A stretch of 61,572 nt of DNA, filler included. It is 12 parts of 12 records of this genome, joined end to end, with 100 filler letters (N's around TTAATTAATTAA, not from the genome) between each part and the next. Parts side by side here need not be neighbours in the genome. Positions count along the whole stretch, not along the records: positions 56,909 to 61,572 come from SRR7504441_5099; 11 more parts are not named here. One strand, 5' to 3'. Position 1 is the first letter of the stretch. The number at the start of each line of letters is the position of its first letter. Positions 9,391 to 61,572 of the stretch are shown piece by piece. The position numbers were made by a program, and so were the translations under genes. The notes below the pieces were generated by a model. The model searched no databases, had not been told where the DNA came from, and was given only the letters and a program-made list of their open reading frames with translations.

Positions 9391-11907
9391 TCACAGGGTG
9401 AACACATGATCTGGTGGCCCGAGCTTACAATTACCCGTCCATACATTCAGAACGCCCTGCATGAGATCAAAGATACCAGTCACCTCGCTGAAACAATCAT
9501 CCGGACCGGTATGATTCCTATAGACTGGCCAGTTGCCCTCGGTGTCGCCGAGGAACCGTCGCATCCCGCCTAAATCCTGAATCGGTTGCATCTGCCGCCA
9601 GCGGTTGGCTCGGCTCTGTGTGCTGTTATCTGGAAATTGCTTGGCCTCCTTTAACTCTTTGAACTCATTCCCATGAAAGTAGCTCTCACCCGGCCCAATC
9701 GCCCTCTGTGCCACCCGTCGCCCGCCGCCGGTGTCCACCTCAAGCTGCACCAGCCGGCTATTCGTACCACGCCATCCCAGTTGGTAGCTCATCGCAGTTG
9801 ATACGTTCGGCTGGGCGGCCCGGGCAATCGCTTGGTCAAGTGAGCTGGCAGTGAGTAGATGCCTCGCGGCGAACGCAGTCCCGATCCCACCGAGCTGATA
9901 CCGGCGTGGAAACAGGCTGTTGACGGTATAAACTAGCCCGTGGCTATTCCAACTGATATCCATCCCCGGAAGGTAGCCCGGATAGACCCAGCTGCCCCAG
10001 CTCAGGCTATCGCTCCGCCGTGTGGCAGTGATGAAGTAGGCGAGGGTGCGCCAATCCTGGGTCCAGTCGTCGGTATGCCCGAGCAGCATCCCACTTGGCT
10101 GGTTTAGCATCACGGACGAGCATTTAGCCACCCTCAGCTTGGGCTCGGCCAGCTGCACCAGCTCTTCCCTGAAGTTGTTCACAACTAACCGCCCAACCGG
10201 CACACCGGACCCGTCCGACATCCCCTCAAGCTCCTCCCAGTAGAGCGGAAACGCCGCCTTTGAGTCCCGGGCCAGCGAGGCCAGCACAGCCGCTCCTTGG
10301 GTGCCGTTGGTGTACCGGAGCAGCAGCTGGAGCTCCGGGTCCGGCGCCTCGAGCATCACCCGCCGGATACTCGGCCCGAACTCCGCCCCAATCGCCCGGC
10401 CGAGCTCCCGGTGCCCTGCCAGGTCGTCCGAGTACGCGATCCGCAGCTGCCGCACCGCTGGCGAGCGCTCAGCTTCGGCGGTCACACATGAAGCATTAAG
10501 CGCGGGTGAGACGGCCATAGCCGCGCCGTGCAGGCTGCCAGGGGTGCAGCGCCAGCTGAGGTCAGAGAGCGGAGCGCGGCCGGCAGCGAGCACCGAGACG
10601 TTCTGCAGCCGCAGGCCGTGCACCCCGCCAGGCCCAAGCGCAGAGGGCTCGGATCCGGCTTGGAGCCACCCAGCTGAGCGGTGCTTGGGGTCGCAGCCGT
10701 AGTCGACGCAGCCCTGGCAGCAAGTCAGATTCCGGGCGACGATGTTTTCAAACACCACGCCGGTCACCCTGGCCACGTCCTCAGGCGGGGGCGTTCGGTG
10801 GCCCTTGACGGTACCGAGATTGACATCAACCCCAACCGCCATCCCAGCGCTCAGAATTTCGATGTTGCGCCAGGTTACGTTGGTCACCTCCCCGCCCCGT
10901 GGCTCTGGCGTTGATAGTTTGAGCGCGATCCCGGCATATCCGACTGTGTTGTGTTCAAACAGGATGTTGTGAATGCCGCCCGACATCTCGGTGCCCACCT
11001 TGAGTGCGCCGCACCCGTCGCCCAACCCATGAAAGACGTGCGGGCACGACGCCGATCGGATCAGATTGTACCGGGCCCGGACATCGGTGCATGGCCGGCT
11101 GTGCGCTCGCCCGATCTGGTTGCGGCCACTCTTGATGCAAATCGCATCATCGCCGGAGATGATATCATTGTGTTCGACCAGCGCGCGGGTGACGGAGACG
11201 AGATCGATACCGTCTGCGTTCGGGCCATAGCAGTCTTCGGTCTGGTTGGTGCACCCCCCGCGGCCGCCACTTGGGTTCCGCACAGTCACGTGGTGAATGT
11301 GCACGTCTGAACTCTCAAGCACCACTAGATTCCAGAACCCGCTCGCATTCGTCCCAAATCTCGAGAGCTCCACCCGCCGACAGCCTTCGATCACCGCCAG
11401 CCGCGGCCGGCCGTATCGAAGCTGGCCTTGGCTGTTGGCTCTGTACCAGAAGAAGCCGTCGCCGTCGATTATGCCGGGGCCAGTGATCACCAGGTCTGAG
11501 ACGTTCACCGCGTGGATAAACGGGGCATACTGCAGCGCATCCCCATCGATGCCGTTGGCCCAGGGCGCCACTGTCGGCCAGTCTAGGGCGCTCAGTGCCT
11601 TGATCCGGACGCCAGCCTCGAGCACCAGCGTCAGGTTGGAGAGAGTAATCCGCAGCGGCCTGCTTAGATAGAGGCTCTCACCGCTCCCGGGCCGCTTGGG
11701 CACGATCAGGGTGCCACCGGTCCGGGCCAGCTGGGCGAACGCCTTTATGAATGCTGGCAGGTTGTCCGCCGCGTCCGGCGAGCCGCCAAAGTCGGTCAGC
11801 CGCACGGTCGGCCCGCCCGCACCGCCGGAGGTGACCGGGACTGTCTGCAACGGCCACGGCCCCGCGGCTGCTGCGGCCACTGCCGCGAGCATCAGGACCG
11901 TCTTCAT
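9391..11907 (-). CDS. Secreted GH28 polygalacturonase-like domain fused to a peptidase C45 (AAT/Ntn hydrolase) domain
   Basis: Signal peptide. GH28 motifs NADGID, GDDAICIKSG, LKVGTEMSGG. The C-terminal half has FPLYWEELEGMSDGSG, Ntn nucleophile AK-CSSV, GHTDD and WNSHGL. Intronless 838-aa ORF. Confidence 0.85.
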   Translation of the reverse strand: MKTVLMLAAVAAAAAGPWPLQTVPVTSGGAGGPTVRLTDFGGSPDAADNLPAFIKAFAQLARTGGTLIVPKRPGSGESLYLSRPLRITLSNLTLVLEAGVRIKALSALDWPTVAPWANGIDGDALQYAPFIHAVNVSDLVITGPGIIDGDGFFWYRANSQGQLRYGRPRLAVIEGCRRVELSRFGTNASGFWNLVVLESSDVHIHHVTVRNPSGGRGGCTNQTEDCYGPNADGIDLVSVTRALVEHNDIISGDDAICIKSGRNQIGRAHSRPCTDVRARYNLIRSASCPHVFHGLGDGCGALKVGTEMSGGIHNILFEHNTVGYAGIALKLSTPEPRGGEVTNVTWRNIEILSAGMAVGVDVNLGTVKGHRTPPPEDVARVTGVVFENIVARNLTCCQGCVDYGCDPKHRSAGWLQAGSEPSALGPGGVHGLRLQNVSVLAAGRAPLSDLSWRCTPGSLHGAAMAVSPALNASCVTAEAERSPAVRQLRIAYSDDLAGHRELGRAIGAEFGPSIRRVMLEAPDPELQLLLRYTNGTQGAAVLASLARDSKAAFPLYWEELEGMSDGSGVPVGRLVVNNFREELVQLAEPKLRVAKCSSVMLNQPSGMLLGHTDDWTQDWRTLAYFITATRRSDSLSWGSWVYPGYLPGMDISWNSHGLVYTVNSLFPRRYQLGGIGTAFAARHLLTASSLDQAIARAAQPNVSTAMSYQLGWRGTNSRLVQLEVDTGGGRRVAQRAIGPGESYFHGNEFKELKEAKQFPDNSTQSRANRWRQMQPIQDLGGMRRFLGDTEGNWPVYRNHTGPDDCFSEVTGIFDLMQGVLNVWTGNCKLGPPDHVFTL

Positions 11908-12003
11908 CCCCGTACGTCCAGCCGGCCCTCGGAGCGATAACCGTTACAGACTGCCGTTATTGCTGAATCGCCAAGGCGCCTCACCTCAGCATGTCCATAC
12001 CAA

Positions 12004-35790: not shown

Positions 35791-35914
35791 ATTGCGCTTT
35801 TCGGAATGACTTATNNNNNNNNNNNNNNNNNNNNNNNNNNNNNNNNNNNNNNNNNNNNTTAATTAATTAANNNNNNNNNNNNNNNNNNNNNNNNNNNNNN
35901 NNNNNNNNNNNNNN

Positions 35915-38468
35915 CCGGAGCCAGAGCCGGAGCCCGAGCCAGAGAAGCCGGTCGAGTTTGTGCCTCGGGCGCGGGCGGCGTATGCAGGCCGACGAGAGAA
36001 CTTTGTGAGGCAGAACCTGAACACTTATAATAAGAAGATCAGCGGGCTCCGTAAGGCCTCGGGGCAGGGCCGGGCCAAGCGGGCGGTCAAGAAGTCCAGG
36101 CGGGAGGCTGGGGCCCCGGGCGAGGGCTGGTCGATGGCGAATGACATTGAGCTGATCGCCGTGGCCACCGGCCGGAGCACAGTGGACGAGCAGGAGTGGG
36201 ACAAGGCCTGCCTCGAGATGGAACTGCCGGCCCCCGGGGCGGCCAGACCGCTCCGGCCCGGCGAGGAGGTCACCGAGGAGCGGCTGCGGGCGGCGCTCAA
36301 GCAGCACTTTGGGCACTGTGAGTTCAGACCGGGGCAGTTGTTCGCGATCGAGCGCACAGTGGCCGGGCAGTCGAGCCTTATCATCCTACCGACCGGGGTG
36401 GGCAAGTCGCTCTGCTACCAGCTCCCGGCGCTGTTCCTGCCGGGCCTCACGCTGGTGGTCTCGCCTCTGATATCGCTAATGGCAGACCAGTTGGCCAAAC
36501 TGCCCAAAGCTGCCCCGGGCGCCATGCTCACCTCTCAGCTAACCCCCGAGCAGTCTGCGGACGTCTTCCGGCGGGTGCGCGACGGGAGCTGCCGGGTGCT
36601 GTTTGTGTCGCCGGAGCGGTTCCTGTCGTACAGCTTCATGGCGCTGATGGACTCAATCCAGATCTCGGTTGCGGTCGTGGATGAGGTGCACTGCATGTCC
36701 CAGTGGTCTCACAACTTCAGGCCGGCCTACCTCAAGCTCGGTGGGATGCTCCGGGAGCGGCTCGGGGTCGGCTGCGTGCTGGCGCTCACAGCCACCGCCA
36801 CGGTGGCCACCCAGCGACACATAACTGAGGTGCTTCAGCTGCCAAATGAAGGCAGGCACATCCAGGCTCCGATCCGGGAGAACCTGCACTTGTCAGTCTC
36901 CCGCGAGGAAGTGGCCAGCAACAAGCTTCACGACCTGTGCAGCCTGCTCCGGAGCCCAAAGTTCCGGCAGATGCGTTCGATCATCGTGTACGTGGCCTTC
37001 AAGTGGCAGGCCACTGAGCTCGCGAGCAAGCTAGTCGAGAGTCAGTTCGCTGCAGCACCGTACCACGCCGGTCTGCCTGCGCACGAGCGGTCGACGGTTT
37101 ACCGCAGGTTCCTGGAGGACAAGCTCAAGGTGGTGGTGGCCACGGTGGCGTTCGGGATGGGGATTGACAAAGCGAATGTGGACGGCGTGGTGCACTACAG
37201 CATGCCAAAGTCTATCGAGGCGTACGTGCAAGAAGTTGGCAGAGCCGGGCGAGACATGCGCACTCAGGCCGTCTGCCACACTTTTCTGTCGGACGACGAC
37301 TGGCTGCGCTTCCGGGCGCTGCTGCACAGTGACGTAGTGGATCGGGTGACAATCTGCGGGATCGTGCAGGCGTTGGTCTGCACCAAGGACATAGCAGCGC
37401 CCAAGAAGCGGAAGCGGGGCCAGCTCAAAGGGCTCCGACACAACATGGCGATCGAGCAGCTGCTGCGCGAGACCAAGTCGCTGCTCCCCAACACAAAGTG
37501 CGTGATTCACCTCGACTCGCTAGAGAAAGAGCTCGACGTCCGAAAGGCATCGGCCGGGCCAGGCTGAGCTGAGCTGTGTGCAGGAGCTGATTGAGACGAT
37601 CATTTGCTATTTGGCCAAGTTGGGCCACCTGCGCACGCTGCCGCCGGTCTGTGGCAAGTGTTCCGTCGAGTTTCGGCGGCGAGACCCATCCGAGCTGTCC
37701 AGCTCACACAGTGTTGTCGAATACATCCTGCAGAAAGTCAAGCCGCTCGCAGGCGGTCGGTACAAGTTTGGGATGGCTGCGGCCGCCAACGGGCTGCGAA
37801 TGCCTGTCAAGGCAGTAGAGCAGCAGCTGTTTGGGCTGCAGCGGATGCACGAGCTTCGGTACGAGCTGAGCGAGCCCGGGCCGCACTTTGAGCTGCTCAA
37901 GCTTCCGTATGGGGCTGATATGCCGGCGCTGATCGACCACCTGCACAAGATCATGAGCCAACTGGTCACAGCCAACCTCGCCAAGCTGAACGCGGCCTAC
38001 CTGTCGCTCCGTGAGGCCGTGTGCTGCGAGGGGCACGCCAAGGCGGCCAGTTTCCTGCACGAGGCCCGGGCCGAAAGCCAGGCGCTGCACAGGGCAGTGT
38101 CAGACTACTTTGTGGAGGAGAGCAGCCCGAGCTCTGTAAAGCTGCCGGTGATGGATTGGGTCGAACAGGAGGCCAGCTCTCGCGGCAAGACGCTCCGAGC
38201 CGAGGTGCAGGCGTTCATCAACCGGGAGGGCGCGGCCAAGCTGCAGAGCGGCCGGTGTGTCGCGTGCATCTTCCAGGGGATACCCAGCCCCAAGTACCCA
38301 ACTGACGTGTGGAAGAAGCGTCCAGAGTGGGGACGGTACGTGTGTGTGCCATTCGAGCAGATTCGGGCGGTGGCGAATGAGGAGCTGCAGTTGGCTTGGG
38401 TTGGGCTGGAGGTCGAGACCAATGCGAAGAAAAAGACAGCTAGAAGTACATGTACTCAGAAAGAATAA
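35915..38468 (+). CDS. RECQL4: RecQ helicase, RECQL4-like (5' partial)
   Basis: RENFVRQNL, LPTGVGKSLCYQLP, VDEVHCMSQWSHNFRPAY, ATVAFGMGIDK, YVQEVGRAGRD. GC-AG intron 37547-37583 joins the C-terminal exon with VACIFQGIPSPKYP...WGRY, typical of the RECQL4 C-terminus. Confidence 0.9.
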
Positions 38469-41587: not shown

Positions 41588-44098
41588 TCAGCCGCTGGCC
41601 ACAACAACGTGCGGTCCCGCAGAAACCATATCCAAGCACAAGTAGGCGCCCTTGTTTGGTCCTGACAGGTCTGGTCGGCCTTGCTTAGTCTGACCATCAA
41701 GGAGCAGCTTAACATCCGAAGTGGCCATCTCTCGCAAGGGGACGCACAGCGTCGCCTCGGTGCTCTCTGGCACCGTCACGTTTAGTTGTACCAAGCCAGC
41801 TTGCTGCCTCAGATTTATACGGACGGGACCTTTGGGCGTTGGAACAACAATGGCCACCGAGCTCAAATTGCCTGGAGCAGGTCGCGCAGTCCATTTCCCC
41901 CATCCAGGTGTGACTGGCCGCACTCCCATCAGCCCTGAGGCGATAGCGCTCGCAGGCGTGGACGACCAGGGGTGAGAGTGGGTGCCGTCGTGTGGGTACC
42001 AATGCTCCCAGGTGGCGGTCGCCCCAAGATTGATCATGTGGCACCACGAGTGATCCGTGCACTGCGTCATCAGCTCGAGCGCCGTCTGACCAAAATCCAA
42101 TGACGACGCGCGGTCATAGAGCCCGTGAATCAGCGAGTGCGACGAATAGGTGGAACCAACCATCCCCTGGCCCTGGAGATAGCTGAGTGCAGCAGCAACT
42201 CCATGCTCAGGCGTCACCCCGAGTGAAAGCAGGTAGTGCTGCGAGTGGAACGTCGACCCTGGTGTCTTGTCACATACTCCATCGCACCACATGCCATCTG
42301 CATTGTACATCCGGCTAAGCATCGCAGCCTTGGTGCGTGCTGCCTGCGCCGACAGCCGAGAAGCCCACTGAGGGCGATTTGTAGCATTGGCCAGCTCCGC
42401 CAGGAGCGTCATGCTTCTAACAGCAAAGGCATTGATAATCGAACTTACAGGAGAAAAGTTATACCCTGCACGAAACTTTGGCAACCAGTCTATGTTGTCA
42501 CAGCTCCTCCCGCCATCCTGGACGCCTTCAGGAAAAGTGGCCGTGTCATTGTGGCAGATTGGAGAGTTGCCATCAAAGAATGGTCCAATCCAATGGCCGT
42601 CAGGTGCAGTGAGAGTGCTGCTGAAGTTGACAAGCTGGCTATCAGGATCGACGAATGGCAGCATGGTGTTGTTGACCAACAGCCCAAAGTTCTGATCAGC
42701 AAGCGAGCTATCCCCGGACTGCATGTAGTGCTCATGCGTCAGCAATATCGAGTATTGCTTCCATTCCGTCGGCCAGGTCGGGTTATTAAGCACGAATTGC
42801 GTCGAGTGCCGGGGCCACGCTCTCTCAGACCGGAGCGCCCAGTAGCTCCGAGAGGTGACGAATCCGTCGGCCTCATATGGGCACCTCTCGCGCACGTTGG
42901 AGTCGGTGAACGTATCGAGCACATTGTATTTGATTGTGTTGTAGCACAGATTCCACACCCTGTCGAGCATCGTCGAGGACGACGCAAATGAAGCCTCGTC
43001 CTCCCACGGGTAGGACGCCGTCCACTGGCTCAGCGAGAAGTTCAGTCCGGCGTCGCGCACGTTAGACGCCTTGAGGCGTATCTCACCATACCTCCACAGC
43101 CCAACATACTCGTGCTGCTCGAATCTGCTCTCGCCTGCAGCTAGGGTGAGCTGGGAGACGTACAACGGGATCTTGTTCCAGTTCTCGGGGTCGAACGGCA
43201 GCCCAGGGACCAGCACCGAGTGCTTATCGAAATGCCCCAGCTGCTCGGCCAGTCTCACCTCCACTTGGGCTCCACTGCCCCCCCACGCCTCCGCAGTGGC
43301 TGCAGGCACCACCAACGAGACCCCCGCAGTGCGCTCCTGCCCAAAATCAAAGAAGTAATGATCCGCTGAGAGCTGCAACAGTTGTGTTGTCTTCAGACCA
43401 GTCTGGATCACAATCGGCAGCGTCGTCTTGGCCACCGGTGGCGAGGCCACACGGCGTTGCTCTGCCTTTGACCACCCCCGGGCCGCCGGATCGAATTGGG
43501 CCAGCCGCCAATCGGAGATATTTGCTAATGGCCGCGCATCGATATCCTCGTTGACATAGTAGTGCCCCCCGCCGGTGTCCAGCTGACCCTTTTTGAAGAT
43601 GCTGTCTGCGTTGAAGCTGAACCAGTCGCCCCCGCTCCGCACCCGCCCCACGCACCGGCCGGCCGCGTCGAGCAGCTCGGCCTCGAGCATCACCCAGCCC
43701 GCAGCCCCGCCGTTCGGCTGGAAGCACTGAAGCGCCAGGCTGATCGAGCCGCCTCCAGCCCGGAGCACCTCAGCGGGCACCTCCACCGAGTCGAAGACGG
43801 CGTTGGTCGAGTCAACTGACACGGGCACCTCGCCGCGCCCGGGCCCGGTGGTCAGGTCCAGTCCGTTGACAGAGAGCCGGTACAGACCGAGCACTTGCTG
43901 CCTGTCCAAATTGTCCTGGGCCGCCGAAACCAGCACTCGCATCCGCGCCGGGGCGGCGGACAGCCGCAGCGTCGGGGGCCGGAGCAGCACGAACGAGGCG
44001 CCCCAGGCTGCCGGCGCCCAGATTCCCATCGTCTGATTCGAGAAGCCCTGCGCGTCCGCCACAGCTAAAAGGGTGAGGGCTCCTATCAGCCATTGCAT
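41588..44098 (-). CDS. Alpha-L-rhamnosidase (GH78)
   Basis: Signal peptide; FFDFGQE, FTDSNVRERCPYEAD, WPTEW, GATATWEHW, THSHPWSSTP and VPTPKGPV; intronless 836 aa. Confidence 0.92.
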   Translation of the reverse strand: MQWLIGALTLLAVADAQGFSNQTMGIWAPAAWGASFVLLRPPTLRLSAAPARMRVLVSAAQDNLDRQQVLGLYRLSVNGLDLTTGPGRGEVPVSVDSTNAVFDSVEVPAEVLRAGGGSISLALQCFQPNGGAAGWVMLEAELLDAAGRCVGRVRSGGDWFSFNADSIFKKGQLDTGGGHYYVNEDIDARPLANISDWRLAQFDPAARGWSKAEQRRVASPPVAKTTLPIVIQTGLKTTQLLQLSADHYFFDFGQERTAGVSLVVPAATAEAWGGSGAQVEVRLAEQLGHFDKHSVLVPGLPFDPENWNKIPLYVSQLTLAAGESRFEQHEYVGLWRYGEIRLKASNVRDAGLNFSLSQWTASYPWEDEASFASSSTMLDRVWNLCYNTIKYNVLDTFTDSNVRERCPYEADGFVTSRSYWALRSERAWPRHSTQFVLNNPTWPTEWKQYSILLTHEHYMQSGDSSLADQNFGLLVNNTMLPFVDPDSQLVNFSSTLTAPDGHWIGPFFDGNSPICHNDTATFPEGVQDGGRSCDNIDWLPKFRAGYNFSPVSSIINAFAVRSMTLLAELANATNRPQWASRLSAQAARTKAAMLSRMYNADGMWCDGVCDKTPGSTFHSQHYLLSLGVTPEHGVAAALSYLQGQGMVGSTYSSHSLIHGLYDRASSLDFGQTALELMTQCTDHSWCHMINLGATATWEHWYPHDGTHSHPWSSTPASAIASGLMGVRPVTPGWGKWTARPAPGNLSSVAIVVPTPKGPVRINLRQQAGLVQLNVTVPESTEATLCVPLREMATSDVKLLLDGQTKQGRPDLSGPNKGAYLCLDMVSAGPHVVVASG

Positions 44099-44150
44099 GA
44101 TTGCAAAATAACGGATTCAGCTGGTCGGCAGCACCGCCTGCGCGCCAGGC

Positions 44151-47882: not shown

Positions 47883-49586
47883 TCAGTTTCTGACAATGAT
47901 TATCGTGTCAAACACCGAGTCGTCCTCGTTAATCACTTGTTCGAACGTCAACACAGAAGCGTTTGAGGTGGTCATTCTGCCATATCCCCACTTGGAGAGT
48001 CGTTTCCTCACCCAAGGATTCTGCCCCGGATAAAATGTATCCAAGCCCGGCGCGCCTCCTGCACCCGAGGTGATGTGCAGTGGTGCCAAAGGGTTCTGGA
48101 TGATTTGTGGATTCGTGTAGTTGGCAGCCGACCAATCGCCAACAATGGAACCATTCATGATAGGCCACACAGACTCATAATTGTGCTCGTGCCCAGCAAT
48201 ATAGATGTCGACCTTGTACTTGCTGAACAAAGGCTCCAAGTCTGCTCGTACCTGGGCAATGTGGGTACCATAACTCCAACAGCCCACCTCTTGATCTTGG
48301 TCAGCTGCCAGATCGCCATCCTGGTGCAGCTCGGCGGTGAGGCTGTCAGAGGTGCAGTAGATCGGGAAGTGCGAGCCGACAACTATCCAGGGCACAAGAT
48401 CTCGGTTGGCTGCTGCCGACTGGAGGTCCGCCCGAAGCCAGTCAAGTTGGGGTTGAATCCACACCGAATCGGCCGTATTGTAGTATGCATTCAGATCCAA
48501 CGCCACGAAATGCACTAGGCCGATGTCCGTGCTATAGAACCTGGATGATCGGGATGCTTGCGATCCCCCATGCGTGCCAATCCCCACCGCAGATCCTACA
48601 GTGACAAAAGCGTGCAGTGCCGGGAGCGAGGCCTTGGCATGCTCTTGGCCATAGATGACCCCGTAAGTTTCGTTCAAGTAGTGCTCTGCTGTCCAATAGT
48701 CGCCTGCGAATTCATGATTGCCGAGCACAGGAATCCAAGGAGTGCTCCCAAGGCAGCAGTCGGAAAAAGCATTGAAGTAGCCATCGCCTCGGCTCCCTTG
48801 CGAGTCTTCTATGTTGTATGCATGGTCGCCGAGGTGCACAATAGCATCAATGCGGCCCGCAGCTGCATCTCGTTGAAGATTTCCCATGTTGTTGTACGAA
48901 TAGACGCCCATATCGCCATAAATTGCGAATTTCGTGGGGTGAGCAGCATCCCCTGTCGCGCTGTAAAGCGCTTTGAAAGTGCGCACGTGCGACCAGTCGC
49001 TGCTGCCGCTCTTGACCTGGTAGCTGTACGTCTGGCGTGGTGCGAGCCCCGACATTTTGACGAAGTGCATGTAATACGCCCGGTGCCCCTGGCTCGGGTC
49101 GATGTACACCCGGGTGATGCCTCGAAACACACGGTCGGCTCCGTCCGGCTGACGCACCAGCGCCTGTGGAGCTGCGGGGCTACTCGACTCGTTAAACGTG
49201 ACGAACGCAACCACCATGATGTCGCCCCGCCCGGGATACTGCAAATTGATTTGCTCCGGCATCGCAAGGCTGGGCGGCCCGCAATAGCCCCAGTCGCCTG
49301 CAGCGCTGCCTTTGCAGTAGCACCAGTACGTGGAGGACGGGTCGTGCGAGGGCATGGCACATCGGTCGGCCGCATCGGACAGCGGGTTGCCGCCCCGCCA
49401 CTTTGCGTCCACTGCCGATTGGTCCCGTCCGTTGCCGTCGGCAGCCAGGTGGCTCCAACGGGCGCAGCCAGCGGGACAGTTGGACGGGGGGCGCATCGGC
49501 ACCGAGGCCAGCGAGTCAATCATCTCGGCACGGCCCAACCCCGCCCAGCACGCAATACTCAACAACAGCGCTCGCCCCCTGGACAT
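47883..49586 (-). CDS. Purple acid phosphatase (ACP7-like) with an N-terminal Cys-rich module
   Basis: Signal peptide; PEQINL, FN3-like domain and metal motifs GDMG, GDHAY, GNHE, SHFPIY, GHEHNYE. Confidence 0.92.
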   Translation of the reverse strand: MSRGRALLLSIACWAGLGRAEMIDSLASVPMRPPSNCPAGCARWSHLAADGNGRDQSAVDAKWRGGNPLSDAADRCAMPSHDPSSTYWCYCKGSAAGDWGYCGPPSLAMPEQINLQYPGRGDIMVVAFVTFNESSSPAAPQALVRQPDGADRVFRGITRVYIDPSQGHRAYYMHFVKMSGLAPRQTYSYQVKSGSSDWSHVRTFKALYSATGDAAHPTKFAIYGDMGVYSYNNMGNLQRDAAAGRIDAIVHLGDHAYNIEDSQGSRGDGYFNAFSDCCLGSTPWIPVLGNHEFAGDYWTAEHYLNETYGVIYGQEHAKASLPALHAFVTVGSAVGIGTHGGSQASRSSRFYSTDIGLVHFVALDLNAYYNTADSVWIQPQLDWLRADLQSAAANRDLVPWIVVGSHFPIYCTSDSLTAELHQDGDLAADQDQEVGCWSYGTHIAQVRADLEPLFSKYKVDIYIAGHEHNYESVWPIMNGSIVGDWSAANYTNPQIIQNPLAPLHITSGAGGAPGLDTFYPGQNPWVRKRLSKWGYGRMTTSNASVLTFEQVINEDDSVFDTIIIVRN

Positions 49587-49966
49587 CTCTTCGGGTGGCA
49601 CAAGTCTGCTCCGCGTAGCCCCGGCTGCCAGTGCCCCGCAGATCGAGCCAACCGCAGATCGAGCCAACCGACTCAGCAGACTTTGTATTTGTGGAAATTA
49701 GACTAACACACCAAATGGTGGTGAGCAATGGACNNNNNNNNNNNNNNNNNNNNNNNNNNNNNNNNNNNNNNNNNNNNTTAATTAATTAANNNNNNNNNNN
49801 NNNNNNNNNNNNNNNNNNNNNNNNNNNNNNNNNATAGATTGGTTCGTACACTGTGATCACACTATCTCATGGTGCTCTCAGGTGACACATTGCTGAACAA
49901 TCTCGTCAAGCGCGTCCATCTCCGTACTCATGTACTGCATGGTGAGCAACATGCATCACGATTCGA

Positions 49967-56700: not shown

Positions 56701-56808
56701 ATCGAGCCACGCACCAGCTGCTGCCATGTGCCACCTCCGGAACGGGCCACGGCACCGCGCGACTCCCACCAGCCAGCTGGCCCGCGCAATCAGAGCCATC
56801 CCGGCCAT
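53728..56808 (-). CDS. Large coiled-coil protein with a Trp/Arg-rich (Sfi1-like) N-terminal region; 5' partial
   Basis: 752-aa ORF 54423..56681 plus downstream exons; periodic W/R-rich helices followed by an E/Q/R/A coiled coil. Confidence 0.55.
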
Positions 56809-57182
56809 NNNNNNNNNNNNNNNNNNNNNNNNNNNNNNNNNNNNNNNNNNNNTTAATTAATTAANNNNNNNNNNNNNNNNNNNNNNNNNNNNNNNNNNNN
56901 NNNNNNNNTTGCGCGCAGCCCAACCATACCGTCGCAGCCAGAGCTGTCATAACTAGACTCGGCCGATGGGCTTAGGAAGAATAGTAAAGTGATACTAAGT
57001 CTCGAGATACAAATCTGAAACGTGCTTTCGTGCGAACTCCACCTAAGCTTAAGCTTAATTAAGGTTAGGCGGACATCGGTCAGGTTGAGCGCATCAATTT
57101 CACCGACTAACTATCACAGACAACAACAAGTTATCAATAATTCTGAGAAGATCAAGCACGCGTGTGCGTGCTTGTTTCACTC

Positions 57183-58544
57183 TCATAACAGGTGTGGTGC
57201 TCTACGCTGAATTAGCAGCTTCAACTGTAACGAGGTATCGACCAGCTTGCTGTTTAAAGTGCTTGTCTGCCGCAACAGACTCGCTCTCTCGTTACCGCGG
57301 TCTTGCGCGAGCATGGTGAGTAATGCTGAAAGCTGGGATGCGATTCGATGCAGTTGTTTGATCACGGGCAAGGTGGCCTGAACAACAGTCGTGATTGGCT
57401 TGAGCTCAGATCGGGCACCGGGCTAGTTGGGGGCGAGAGCCGTCCTATGGGAACCAACAGGCTTTGTTCTAAATCAACAGAGATTGCTTCTGCCTCGTAG
57501 TCCAGCTGAAAACGCGCACGAGTCAACTATATTGTACGCGTAGACCACTGGGACCTGATCCAAAGGGTCTTGGTAGATAGCTCGTTCAGCAGGCGACTTC
57601 AATGCCTCGTTCTGTGCTTCTACAGCCATGCACAGCATCGTCTGTCAGGCCAGTCAGCCGGGCCTAGGCCTAAGCTCCACCTGCATCCCTAGTTGGTCTG
57701 AGAGCCCAAGCAGCGCTTCTGACTGGGCTTGGTGTGCAGCTGAGAGCTGGTGGCACTCTTTGGCCAAGCTTGCACTCCTGCTCTGCTCCTCTGCAAGTCG
57801 AGAGCGCATCGCCACAAGCTGTTCCTCGGCGCCTGTGCTGGCCAGCCTTTGGACCTCGGCCTGAGCCTCGAGTTCCACCACACGTTGCTGCAGCATTCTA
57901 GCCCTGCCGTACATTCATCCAGCCGCCCTGGCCAATCACAGCTGCCTGGCATCGGCTTCGGCGAACTCGTCCGCGGCCACCACCAGCAGCTGGTGCAGCC
58001 TGTGCATGCCCGCCGGATCCCGACTCTCCTCCGGGTGCTCGCAGCCCAGCTCGTGCGCGCTCATCCTGGGCGAGCCTTCGGGCTGACGCTCGAGCTCAGC
58101 CAGCAGCTGCTGCTGCTGCTCCAAAAGCCGCTTGCTCTCGGCCAACTGCTCCGAAAGCCGCAGCACCGTCTCGCCGGATCCAACCTGCGCCGGCTCGGGG
58201 GCTGGCGCACCGGCCGGGCGCACCGACTGGGACAGCCGCTGGTTGTCCTCGCGCAGCTCCCGGAGCAGCTGTGCTAACTGGCTCTGGCTCCGGGTCAGCT
58301 GGTCGCACTTGCGGCTCAGATCGGCCAGTTGGAGCTCCTGCCCGCCGGCTGGGGGCTGTGGGTCGGCCTGCAGCCGGGCCAGTTCGTGCTCGAGCCGGTG
58401 CTGCTGCTCCAAGGCCGCGTCCAGCTGAGAGATGAAGAGCAGCTTGTCCTCGTGGTGCCGGCGCTCGGCCTGGGCGCTGGCCTGGAGCAGCTTGGAGACC
58501 TGGCTGCTCAGCCGGGCCGTCTCCTGTTGCTGGTCCCGCATCAT
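57183..58544 (-). CDS. Multi-exon coiled-coil protein
   Basis: ORF pieces 57936-58550, 57654-57914 and 57183-57371 with L/Q/E heptads. Confidence 0.55.
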
Positions 58545-58612
58545 CCCCACACTGCAGTGATGGGCCTGTCACTGGCACTCACGTCCATCTTCTGGAGGGT
58601 GGGCGTTGACAC

Positions 58613-61116
58613 ATGGAGGCTCCGGGGTCTGAGCCGGAGGCGCCGGTGTCTCAGTTCGCCCTGCTGAACGAGCTGGCCCAAGCGGAGGGCTGGGTGCTGG
58701 ACGTCAAATCCTCCCAGAACCCCAGATTCAGCGCCAAGGCCGAGTTCGGCGGCTGCGACGGCTCGGGCTGCGGGCACTCGATCAAAGAGGCCCGGCACGC
58801 GGCGGCCGAGGAGCTGCTCCACCGACTGGGGGTCCCGCGCCAACCCAAGAAGCCGGCGGCCGCCCAGCTGCAGGAGCTCACCCAGGCTCGGGCCTCGAGC
58901 TACAGGCGGCAGAAAGCGGCGTTCGGGTCCTCCCGCTGGCTGTATCAGCTCAAGTGGACCGATACCGAGTCGCCGGCGTTCGACGCGGTGGTGACCATGG
59001 CCAATAACCTGGTCGCGCACGAGCAGGGCGATAGCGTGGGGGTGGCCAAGGACAAGGCGGCGGCTTCGGTGCTGGGCAAGATGGGCATACAGGGCCTGGC
59101 GCCATGGGCCGACCAAGTGGCAGCCCTGGTGCTCGACAAGTGGGTCCAGCTGAACAGAGCGGTCGGGGTGCAGGCGCAGGAGGTGTTTGGCAACTCGGTG
59201 GTGGCCGGGTTCGTCCAGCTCGGCCCGGGCAGCTCTGAGAGCAAGGTGGTCTCGATCGGGGCCGGAACATCGCACTCGCCCGATCTGCCGACAGAGCGGC
59301 CGGCGCGCTGCCTGTTTGACTGCCACGCCGAAGTGCTCGCCCGGCGGGGGCTGCAGCGGTACTTGCACTGGCAGGTAGAGCAGGCCCATGAGCCCGAGTG
59401 CGAGAGCATCTTCAGCCGGAGGTCGGATGGGCTGGTGCTGCAGGAAGGCATAGAGTTCCACTTCTATGTGAGCAAGGTGCCGTGCGGCGACGCAGCTATC
59501 AACCCCTCGACTGAGGGCTGCACGCCTTGTAATATGCAGCCCTCGCTTGGCGGCCGTGGGCCATCTCTCCCAAGCTCAATCCATGCCCACTGGCCTCGGT
59601 TCCAGCGGTCCACACACGGCAGACTCCGGTGCAAGATGGACACAGGCGAAGCTCTTTCAGTCCTCCCTCCGAATTACGACGATGTGGACGCTACCGAGAG
59701 ATACCGCAAGATGAGCTGCAGCGACCAGATTCTGCGATGGAACATCTTGGGCCTGCAGGGTGCTGCGCTCTCTTGGCTCTTGGCCGAGCCGATCTACATG
59801 AAGAGCCTGGTGCTTGACTCGGAGCAGGTGCTCCACTCCGACCTGTGCCGGGCCGTCTGCTGCCGCGTGAGCTGCTGGCCGGCTCAGCAAGCTCTCGAGC
59901 TGCCGCGGCCGTACAGAGTGAACCACCCAGAGCTGCTCCGATCGTGCTACAGCCATCCGCACTATCGGCCGGAGTCGGCAGGCCACAGCAAACAGAGCGG
60001 GTCGGGCGCATATGCAGCAGTCTGGAGTGCGGATGCGTCGGAGCTGGAGCTGATAGCTGACGCCACCAAGGGGACTTGTCTGAGGGTGGCCGACCTTGAG
60101 GAGAGCCAGAGTGTCAAGTGAGCTAAGCCAGCCGGCTATTTAGCTGCTGAGCGTGCCGGGGCAGGTCGAGGTTGTACCAAGCGGTCGGGCACCTGCGCTC
60201 GATGCTCTCGATTCAGACCAGGTACCTGCGACCGGATGAGCCTCATGAGCCAGAGTCGCAAGACCCCCAGAGCGAACTGTACGAAACCTGTGTCACTCTG
60301 AGAGGCGTGTCAGTTTCATCCAAAGGACCCAACAGGAAAGTATCTGAGAAGAGCGCGTGCGAAAAGATGCTTCAAAGCGTGCAGTCGTTGGCTGTGAGCA
60401 GCGTGTGTCAACATTCGCTCTTTCATTCTTTCTGTAAGCTGATTGAATCCGGTGGACTTGCTACACCAACTAGTGAATTCAATTTCAGTGTTGCAGCAGC
60501 AACTGGTGACAGTCGCTACGCATCAGCAGCTCAAAGTATGCACTCTCATTTCGAAAATAGCTGGGGACAGAAATGGTTGACACTAGATGACCTGAAGAAC
60601 ACTCTGTCAAAAGCAAGTACATCAAACCCTTCGAAGGGGATATCTCCAACTGTGTCCAGTGTGATCAACTCCCTTGGTGGTGCATCACTCGACAGGACAG
60701 AGGCAAATGAGCCACTGGCAGGAGATGCGCATGATGCTCATCCATCCATGAAAGCTCTGCAAGCCGATGCGCCCGTCTTTGTGCCCGTGCGAGCTGCTGC
60801 GGCGGATGCATCTACCCCTGTGCGATCGCAAGCTGCTGTGGTGGATGCATCTACGGGCTTATACATGCGAACAGCTTCGATGGATGCAGCTATCGCCATG
60901 CAGTCAAACTTTCCCATGTACAACCCTCTCCAGCAGGCAGGGCCCCTCCTTACGCAATCAAGTGGTGCATACGACTACTACAACACCAGCAATATGCAGG
61001 CGAACAATAATTCATACATTCAACAGAACGCGAATGTTTCTTACCCACAGCCCATGCCACAACAATACAACGAGTACGACTACTACAATACCGGTACTGG
61101 CGAATGGCTGCATTAA
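58613..61116 (+). CDS. ADAR: ADAR-like dsRNA adenosine deaminase (2 N-terminal dsRBDs, deaminase with an inserted third dsRBD, PAM2 motif, Q/N/Y-rich tail), ~818 aa
   Basis: dsRBD helix-2 signatures GHSIKEARHAAAEELL and GDSVGVAKDKAAASVL. Catalytic motifs DCHAEVLARRG (59318), PCGDA (59480) and MSCSDQILRWNILGLQGA (59711). Phase-2 GT-AG intron 60118-60164 joins ORF 60172..61116. Confidence 0.88.
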
Positions 61117-61572
61117 TCTGTCAGGCAGATGCTTTTGTCAAATCATTGATGAGCAAGGAGTATAAGCGGAGTCTTTTACTAGAATTATGATTATTAAATT
61201 AAAGTCAATATTAGTCCACATCGCAATGGAGGTGAAACTTGAACACGCTCTGTCGCAATTGATTTAATCCAAATAATTTTGGACATCGCAACACCTAGCT
61301 CTAACCTAGCTCGGAGTTTATTGCATGACATCAAATTGAATGAAGTCATCTCCTTCGTATATAAGGATACGAGGGTTGATATACTTAGATTGTATCTGTT
61401 CGTTGAAATGAACGAATGATTTGTTCAATTATGTTCATCATTTGTTATACTGCACGCTGATGCCCCAGCCCCAGAAGAATATCGCACAGGACACGCTGTA
61501 CATGTGGTCGCACCAGCAGCTTCGGCAAATTTTGCAGATTGGCATGGCAAGCAGGTTGCAGTCCCTGGTTCA

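Follow-up and report, generated by a model that had tools for sequence, protein, structure and literature searches.

A dsRNA-binding domain predicted within the deaminase domain of an ADAR-like protein family from marine protists

The window analyzed here is a DNA stretch of 61,572 nucleotides composed of 12 joined record parts, one of which, at 56,909-61,572 (SRR7504441_5099), carries a gene for a protein resembling the adenosine deaminases that act on RNA (ADARs). Very probably, this gene encodes a genuine ADAR-like deaminase in which a genuine double-stranded RNA-binding domain (dsRBD) is inserted (Table 1). On the + strand, a first open reading frame (ORF) extends over 58610-60121, with its first ATG at 58613 and a TGA stop codon at 60119-60121, and a second ORF in a different frame covers 60151-61116. 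Excision of a 47-nt intron (donor CAA/GTGAGC, acceptor GGGGCAG/GTC) fuses both ORFs in frame (..SQSVK/SRLYQAV..), exon 2 corresponding to 60165-61116, and gives a product of 818 amino acids (aa) whose frame is intact over 818 codons. Nearby alternative GT/AG pairs, read by eye, fail to restore the frame, and only the 47-nt intron does so. Furthermore, the spliced protein is collinear across the junction with nine relatives (P0001, P0002, P0003, P0104, P0105, P0106, P0116, P0145, and P0255). The peptides quoted in the original prediction, which had described a third dsRBD inside the catalytic domain, are indeed found in the sequence where it had placed them.

Four poly(A) metatranscriptome runs of seawater, belonging to three studies, supplied eight contigs that match the two exons with at least 99% identity and at most one differing base each, at 58608-58892, 58915-59064, 59964-60114, 60178-60328, and 60496-60730; as the tool cautions, such matches alone do not prove transcription. 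Two contigs from two studies, X2 and X5, both end at 58608, 5 nt upstream of the ATG, a weak hint that the 5' untranslated region of the ADAR-like gene may be very short. On the minus strand, an ORF with coiled-coil-like character (57936-58568) begins about 45-70 nt from the same ATG, so that the two genes form a head-to-head pair.

Table 1. Coordinates of the features of the ADAR-like gene along the window
Feature	Coordinates	Strand	Description and basis
Exon 1 of the ADAR-like gene	58613..60117	+	aa 1-501 and two bases of codon 502; ORF, Pfam A_deamin and dsrm, phmmer
N-terminal dsRBD 1	58661..58828	+	aa 17-72; Pfam dsrm 28.3 bits, cut-off 23
Putative N-terminal dsRBD 2	58844..59083	+	aa ~78-157; 14-aa extra loop compared with homologues; aligned to dsRBD 2 of relatives
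Deaminase domain, N-terminal five-sixths	59252..60076	+	aa 214-488; HAE, PCGD, and SCSD(Q) motifs; Pfam A_deamin positions 1-252 of 329
GT..AG intron	60118..60164	+	47 nt; borders the inserted domain on its N-terminal side; frame and collinearity with nine relatives
Inserted dsRBD	60169..60390	+	aa ~504-577; helix, three strands, helix; long acidic beta1-beta2 loop; Pfam, AlphaFold, Foldseek, VIA
C-terminal deaminase helices, resumed after the insert (SSVCQHSLF ... GQKW)	60403..60582	+	ADR-2 match; AlphaFold helices H82-96, H107-113, H116-133
Low-complexity C-terminal tail and stop codon	60591..61116	+	continuous ORF; rich in A, S, N, P, Q, Y

The deaminase assignment is carried first by exon 1, which alone matches the Pfam family A_deamin with an E value of 6.8e-53 (180.7 bits versus a cut-off of 27). 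This match ends at position 252 of the 329 of the profile, and exon 1 therefore lacks the C-terminal quarter of the domain. In phmmer searches, the closest solved sequence is human ADAR1 (E 1.6e-36), and ADAR2 is also matched (E 1.3e-28). The alignments place the three zinc ligands (His, Cys, and Cys) and the catalytic Glu of the HAE, PCGD, and SCSD motifs on those of both human enzymes, the Gly-Glu pair of the flipping-loop motif is likewise kept in alignment with ADAR1 and ADAR2, and the ELIADATKG strand falls on the matching strand of human ADAR1, in line with the equivalence originally proposed. Between PCGD and the flipping-loop motif (59480-59640), members of the family have an extension of 25-40 aa with a conserved PSLGG.G..LP....HWP motif, which does not occur in animal ADARs and presumably occupies the site of the ADAR2 5' binding loop.

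The remainder of the deaminase domain is found in exon 2, behind the insert. Positions 74-126 of the profile built from the insert and the downstream region match residues 424-477 of the Caenorhabditis elegans ADR-2 deaminase chain (E 1.6e-4), and the post-insert helices of the window protein align both with those of the relatives and with ADR-2, which upholds the claim that the C terminus of the deaminase resumes after the insert. In the AlphaFold model of the relative P0001, residues 136-591 superpose on the ADAR2 deaminase (residues 319-693) with a Z score of 41.6 and a root-mean-square deviation (rmsd) of 2.5 A over 342 residues at 30% identity (VIA-align), and the helices equivalent to the C-terminal ones of the window protein follow ADAR2 up to residue 693. 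From this superposition it follows that the deaminase fold closes around the insert.

The insert itself was recognized as a dsRBD by several sequence comparisons. The Pfam dsrm profile (PF00035) matches residues 21-71 of a 141-aa exon-2 piece with 20.6 bits (E 7e-4) and a 79-aa piece with 21.8 bits (E 2.8e-4), both under the curated cut-off of 23, and such sub-cut-off scores are far from chance in a scan of one protein. The corresponding segment of P0145 passes the same profile with 39.7 bits (E 7.5e-10), that of P0116 reaches 20.1 bits, and nine of the ten insert-plus-tail fragments scanned alone match it at E <= 0.1. In MAFFT alignments made with full-length relatives, the first 33 residues of the exon-2 fragment came out scattered, and these alignments were not used for folding; alignment A6, made of the exon-2 fragment and the corresponding parts of the relatives, was used for both folding and profile building. 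Positions 4-71 of the A6 profile match solved dsRBDs from Loquacious (2.3e-19), TARBP2 (1.4e-18), Staufen (4.8e-14), DGCR8 (2.7e-11), and ADAR1 dsRBD3 (5.4e-10), the values ranging to 1e-8. Comparison with hhalign gives probabilities of 96.8% and 97.3% against dsRBD1 and dsRBD2 of the family, respectively; whether the insert was copied from one or the other is not told apart by profile comparison (E 2.3e-10 versus 2.1e-11). Across the assembled set, the insert profile yields 255 domain matches in 155 proteins, and those listed beyond the family inserts are dsRBDs of ADARs. Among the family inserts, that of the window is the most divergent, its helix 1 being extended by 8 aa and its loop being acidic.

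Predicted structures lead to the same assignment, the insert adopting the alpha-beta-beta-beta-alpha fold in both the window piece and P0001. For the window, the model covers the exon-2 piece 60166-60590, folded with alignment A6. It consists of H2-13, E15-21, E38-45, E48-54, and H57-75, followed by three helices, with a mean predicted local distance difference test score (pLDDT) of 68 and block means of 83-89 for residues 41-70, which comprise strands 2 and 3 and most of helix 2. Foldseek returned ADAR2 dsRBM2 as its best match and the sole one at E <= 0.001 (E 9.7e-4, template modeling score on the target 0.71). With VIA-align, residues 2-77 align to dsRBDs at an rmsd of 2-3 A over 58-66 residues with Z scores of 6.6-7.6, a range which the tool grades as middling, and for this reason the fold assignment of the window insert is based on structure and sequence together. 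Among the 50 VIA entries listed, 48 are dsRBD proteins by title, the other two being 9e4w_J and 9mtr_1w; the HEN1 structure 3htx is one that we take to carry dsRBDs. The full-length model of P0001, obtained with a 78-row alignment, is of high confidence (pLDDT 89.5, predicted template modeling score (pTM) 0.86). Its insert (H462-475, E482-488, E491-498, E501-507, and H510-526) has block pLDDT values of 93-98, and residues 460-528 superpose on mosquito Staufen dsRBD4 with a Z score of 11.0 and an rmsd of 1.8 A over 67 residues at 30% identity. On the evidence of the profile matches and the models, the insert is a homologue of dsRBDs, predicted to fold as one, and is enclosed by a complete deaminase fold.

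Counting the inserted domain as the third of the protein, as had been done originally, is sound for the first N-terminal dsRBD, which is Pfam-positive, and is less direct for the second. The dsRBD 2 segment of the window protein, scanned alone, gives no Pfam match, and its assignment comes from the alignment with relatives, where this domain is modeled as alpha-beta-beta-beta-alpha (P0001) or detected by Pfam (P0104 and P0106).

The architecture is conserved in a non-animal ADAR-like family and is not a one-off, a point that had escaped the original prediction. The top database matches to exon 1 are P0001 (599 aa), P0002 (465 aa), and P0003 (613 aa), with 36-44% identity, and vertebrate ADARB2 and other ADARs rank after them. 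P0003, a hypothetical protein of Pelagophyceae sp. CCMP2097, is the nearest named ADAR-like sequence (36% identity). When 1.84 billion cluster representatives were searched with a profile, only eight proteins were matched through the insert region (P0001, P0002, P0003, P0104, P0105, P0106, P0116, and the fragment P0145), after which the score falls from 494 to 276 bits. A ninth, P0255 (738 aa, listed in EukProt as EP00040 with a choanoflagellate transcriptome, under the label Diaphanoeca grandis), was added by cluster look-up and bears the inserted dsRBD as well. Homologues from nine 90%-identity clusters other than that of the window thus have the insert at the same site and share the same order in one uninterrupted ORF: the deaminase core, the ELI..A..G strand, an insert of 70-100 aa, and the helices starting from S.[VS]SQ..L[FY]. 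Conversely, P0107 (KAJ1479470.1, Baffinella frigidus / Cryptophyta sp. CCMP2293) has no insert, ..NKDG leading straight into EPSISEHSLF, and its Pfam scan reported no dsrm match, while Gorilla ADARB2 (P0024) has merely a short loop at the insertion site. A census of domain layout was made over 256 ADAR/ADAT-type sequences (the window protein and P0001-P0255), 234 of which contain the third zinc-ligand motif; a match to the dsRBD profile C-terminal of this ligand occurs in 15 of the 234, all being the window protein or members of the family.

A quick maximum-likelihood tree was built on 40 rows and 442 columns, the insert columns having been dropped by the fill filter, with support from the Shimodaira-Hasegawa-like approximate likelihood ratio test (SH-aLRT) only. 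Not among the rows are the fragment P0145, near-duplicates P0249-P0254, and some 200 other matches; two rows are long-branched, and the deep forks are left open by this tree. The window protein and the eight full-length insert-bearing rows group together (SH-aLRT 80, not starred), and the insert-less P0107 joins them as sister, the resulting clade being starred (96). An ADAR-type clade (95) encloses it along with animal ADARs and unnamed sequences; the family and P0107 are apart from the six ADAT1 rows and the four oomycete rows, and group with unnamed sequences and not within the two animal ADAR groups. The simplest reading would be that the domain was inserted once, in the family's ancestor, and a loss in the cryptophyte would be compatible with the tree too. 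Searches beyond this set had the following outcome: among short natural fragments of the exon-2 region, 8 candidates were obtained and none was significant; scans of metagenome contigs with the exon-2 fragment and with exon 1 gave 115 and 50 pattern matches, respectively, and no confirmed relatives; and viral contigs searched with P0001 gave no match, and hence nothing among close relatives that would point to giant viruses as a source. In the ESM Atlas, residues 440-599 of P0001 retrieved only sub-threshold ADAR/ADAD clusters (0.77-0.80), which were not used.

Comparison with known systems underlines both the kinship and the peculiarity of this family. With metazoan ADAR1 and ADAR2 (1ZY7, 5ED1, 6VFF, and 9B83) it has in common the A_deamin fold, the zinc and catalytic motifs, the flipping-loop Gly-Glu, and N-terminal dsRBDs; the family alone has a whole dsRBD separating the last beta-hairpin from the C-terminal helices, and differs further by the longer post-PCGD loop with its PSLGG..LP..HWP motif, by its protist source, and by a position that is not nested among the sampled animal ADARs. 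As the original prediction had stated, the ADARs that have been solved or reviewed carry all their dsRBDs N-terminal to the deaminase, at least in the accessible text of PMC11334849. ADAT1/Tad1 enzymes, which deaminate A37 of tRNA, share the Pfam family PF02137 with the window protein, but form a separate tree group, score much lower (for instance P0052, E 1e-17), and, for the ADAT1-named matches listed, come without a precomputed dsrm domain, whereas the window protein has dsRBDs. The cryptophyte protein P0107 shares the extended post-PCGD loop and the C-terminal helices with the family and differs from it by the absence of the insert. Further counterparts are the ADAR-like proteins described from protists by Yabuki et al. 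2025 (PMC11946409), which include representatives from Symbiodinium, diatoms, and paradinids, are non-animal homologues of the ADAR deaminase, and group with ADARs and not with ADAT. In the accessible text of that article, 28 protist sequences from 24 species are reported and the dsRNA-binding domain is stated to be absent, unlike the window family with its two N-terminal dsRBDs and an inserted one; pelagophytes are not among the rows of its species table that were available.

ADARs have been regarded as a metazoan innovation (Grice & Degnan 2015, PMC4323055), as missing in four unicellular holozoans (Zhang et al. 2023, PMC9989829), and, in a table, as present only in metazoans (Iyer et al. 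2011, PMC3239186), as far as the accessible portions of these articles go. A protist family with two N-terminal dsRBDs and one in the deaminase contradicts the view of the dsRBD-bearing ADAR as an animal innovation, and opens the question of how dsRNA editing originated to tests in cultured algae, for example Pelagophyceae sp. CCMP2097. Our full-text literature search, whose scope did not extend to subscription journals, bioRxiv supplements, or the PDF supplement of PMC11946409, found no description of a dsRBD within an ADAR deaminase domain or of dsRBD-bearing ADARs in such algae. This domain architecture, from marine protists, is probably new within the ADAR family, the structural claim being well supported and the mechanism plausible, and the latter weakest for the copy of the window.

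What the inserted domain may do can be approached from its position. The layout would be dsRBD1 - dsRBD2 - deaminase[..dsRBD3..] - low-complexity tail, in which dsRBD3 would sit in a surface loop between the last beta-hairpin, ending with the ELIADATKG strand, and the first C-terminal helix, at a site which we take to correspond to about residues 617-625 of ADAR2. The beta-hairpin preceding this site begins immediately behind the position that aligns with the RQxGK motif of ADAR2. The second strand of an antiparallel hairpin leaves close to where the first one enters. According to PMC11334849, K594 and G593 of the RQxGK motif in ADAR2 come near the RNA backbone where the base is flipped. As the hairpin begins at this RNA-contacting type of motif, the RNA-binding face is probably where the insert comes out, at its edge. 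The linkers flanking the insert in P0001 are short (about 16 and 9 residues) and confidently modeled, which, together with the high whole-chain pTM, suggests that the position of the insert is fixed rather than floppy in the predicted structure. The inserted dsRBD would then be a third duplex-binding module, held on short linkers near the catalytic face, and the substrate helix would be gripped beside the edited site and not via a flexible N-terminal tether.

On balance we favor, with reasonable though not strong confidence, the explanation that the gene encodes an ADAR-type deaminase of a marine eukaryote whose inserted dsRBD acts as a substrate-gripping module. That the inserted dsRBD of the family contacts the substrate duplex is in our estimation an even call, and the same contact by the eroded copy of the window is to be rated below that. 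Since catalytic motifs, closeness to ADAR1 and ADAR2, and dsRBDs are all present, deamination of adenosine in dsRNA would be the best-supported activity of the family. The different substrate-clamping geometry put forward in the original prediction is kept here as a hypothesis. A nucleic-acid-binding domain nested in a catalytic surface loop would constitute a natural experiment on how ADARs position their duplex, and a natural ADAR with a built-in duplex grip beside the active site is a candidate scaffold for RNA-editing tools, which might allow shorter guides or altered neighbor preferences, its function being predicted.

Several observations weigh against this explanation. In addition to the dsrm scores below the cut-off and the middling Z values, helix 1 of the window model has pLDDT values of only 51-67 and the 16-residue beta1-beta2 loop is disordered. 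The RNA-contact residues are incomplete: compared with a consensus that we take to comprise a helix-1 Glu/Gln, a GPxH loop, and basic residues of helix 2, the window insert falls short, its beta1-beta2 loop being a 16-residue acidic stretch (PDEPHEPESQDPQSE) in place of the usual minor-groove loop, and its helix 2 starting with R-K-V-S-E, where Arg-Lys is kept and Glu stands at the third basic position. Where the insert lies with respect to the RNA path is a prediction from secondary structure, pTM, and general hairpin geometry. On the catalytic side, no member of the family has a known editing activity, the window protein has Gln in place of the Lys of SCSDK (region 59700-59730), and Ala is found at two Lys positions of the C-terminal helices (60470-60540) that are kept by seven of the nine relatives. 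The Lys positions replaced in the window are presumably ligands of inositol hexakisphosphate in ADAR2, and through these replacements the window copy may be impaired or may bind inositol hexakisphosphate poorly; in a mapping by eye onto a ligand list of ADAR2 that we assume to be accurate, the Arg-Arg pair behind HAE and the Trp of the C terminus are conserved.

The alternative that fares best is that the insert has the dsRBD fold but is of type B and no RNA clamp, serving instead in dimerization or protein contact, in localization, or as an acidic autoinhibitory lid that would cover the RNA-binding face, RNA binding being left to the two N-terminal dsRBDs. We hold it to be possible, and clearly less probable than a substrate grip. 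It draws on the beta1-beta2 loop, which contains the His of the GPxH type in P0145 alone and lacks it in the nine other inserts, on the start of helix 2, where inserts keep just one or two of the three canonical basic residues (two in most of them), on the strongly acidic loop of the window (PDEPHEPESQDPQSE), and on the pTM of 0.86 of P0001, which suggests a domain packed on the enzyme rather than free. However, the basic motif is similarly reduced in the N-terminal dsRBDs of the family, so that its reduction may be typical of the family as a whole instead of reflecting decay of the insert; the insert profile strongly matches RNA-binding dsRBDs; and the domain is retained across a deep clade.

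An ADAD-like fate, in which the window copy would be a decaying or non-catalytic paralogue with a real architecture and lost editing, appears unlikely to us. The replacement of the SCSDK Lys by Gln and of the two further Lys by Ala fits such a decay, and so do the divergence of the insert, with its helix 1 extension and acidic loop, and a dsRBD 2 that escapes Pfam. Against it stand a reading frame intact over its entire length, the conservation of the zinc ligands, the catalytic Glu, and the flipping-loop Glu, and the closely matching poly(A) metatranscriptome contigs on both exons, with the caution given above.

The last alternative, a gene-model artefact in which exon 2 would be part of a different transcript and the TGA at 60119 would end the ADAR-like protein, can draw on the absence of any RNA contig over 60115-60177 or of any reported exon joint in the four metatranscriptome runs, two X6 contigs stopping at 60114 and starting at 60178, but is highly improbable, as a protein terminating at 60121 would miss positions 253-329 of the A_deamin profile, the missing helices sit immediately downstream in exon 2, the identical order is found in one ORF in ten clusters (the window and nine others), and the frame is restored by the 47-nt intron only. 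As no RNA contig bridges the intron, we infer the splicing from the frame and the collinear homology, and the collinearity of exon 2 with single uninterrupted ORFs of the relatives argues against the separate transcript for 60165-61116 that had been considered as a possible refutation.

The substrate-gripping explanation may be extended to the whole protein, in a scenario that we regard as rather doubtful at present: marine protists would possess a true dsRNA-editing ADAR lineage that arose, or gained its dsRBDs, independently of or before animals, with an in-domain dsRBD3 clamping the duplex on the active-site face and a PAM2-like tail coupling the enzyme to the poly(A)-binding protein. If true, this would be a compact, self-contained clamp, with a site selection unlike the mode of animal ADAR2, which combines an N-terminal tether and an asymmetric dimer, and the tail motif would link the enzyme to cytoplasmic mRNAs or viral RNAs.

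The tail itself matches no Pfam family at E <= 10. A regular expression finds the motif L...A..F.P in it at 60757-60786 (aa 700-709) and also in the tail of P0106 (aa 692), versus 1 of 363 other proteins in the set, a motif which, to our eyes, resembles the PAM2 motif that binds the poly(A)-binding protein. Two copies of the hexapeptide YDYYNT are present in the tail, beginning at aa 771 and at aa 806.

Of the letters of the window, 968 are N, a stretch near 56.8 kb (56800-56900) being among them. Elsewhere, several large single-exon ORFs on the minus strand encode a fusion of a GH28 domain with an acyl-CoA:6-APA acyltransferase-like domain (9391-11943), a GH78-type alpha-L-rhamnosidase (41588-44116), and a purple acid phosphatase (47883-49697). 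The bacterial-type glycosidases may have been acquired horizontally. On the plus strand, positions 35867-37567 encode a RecQ-like helicase whose best named matches are from land plants, with about 43% identity.

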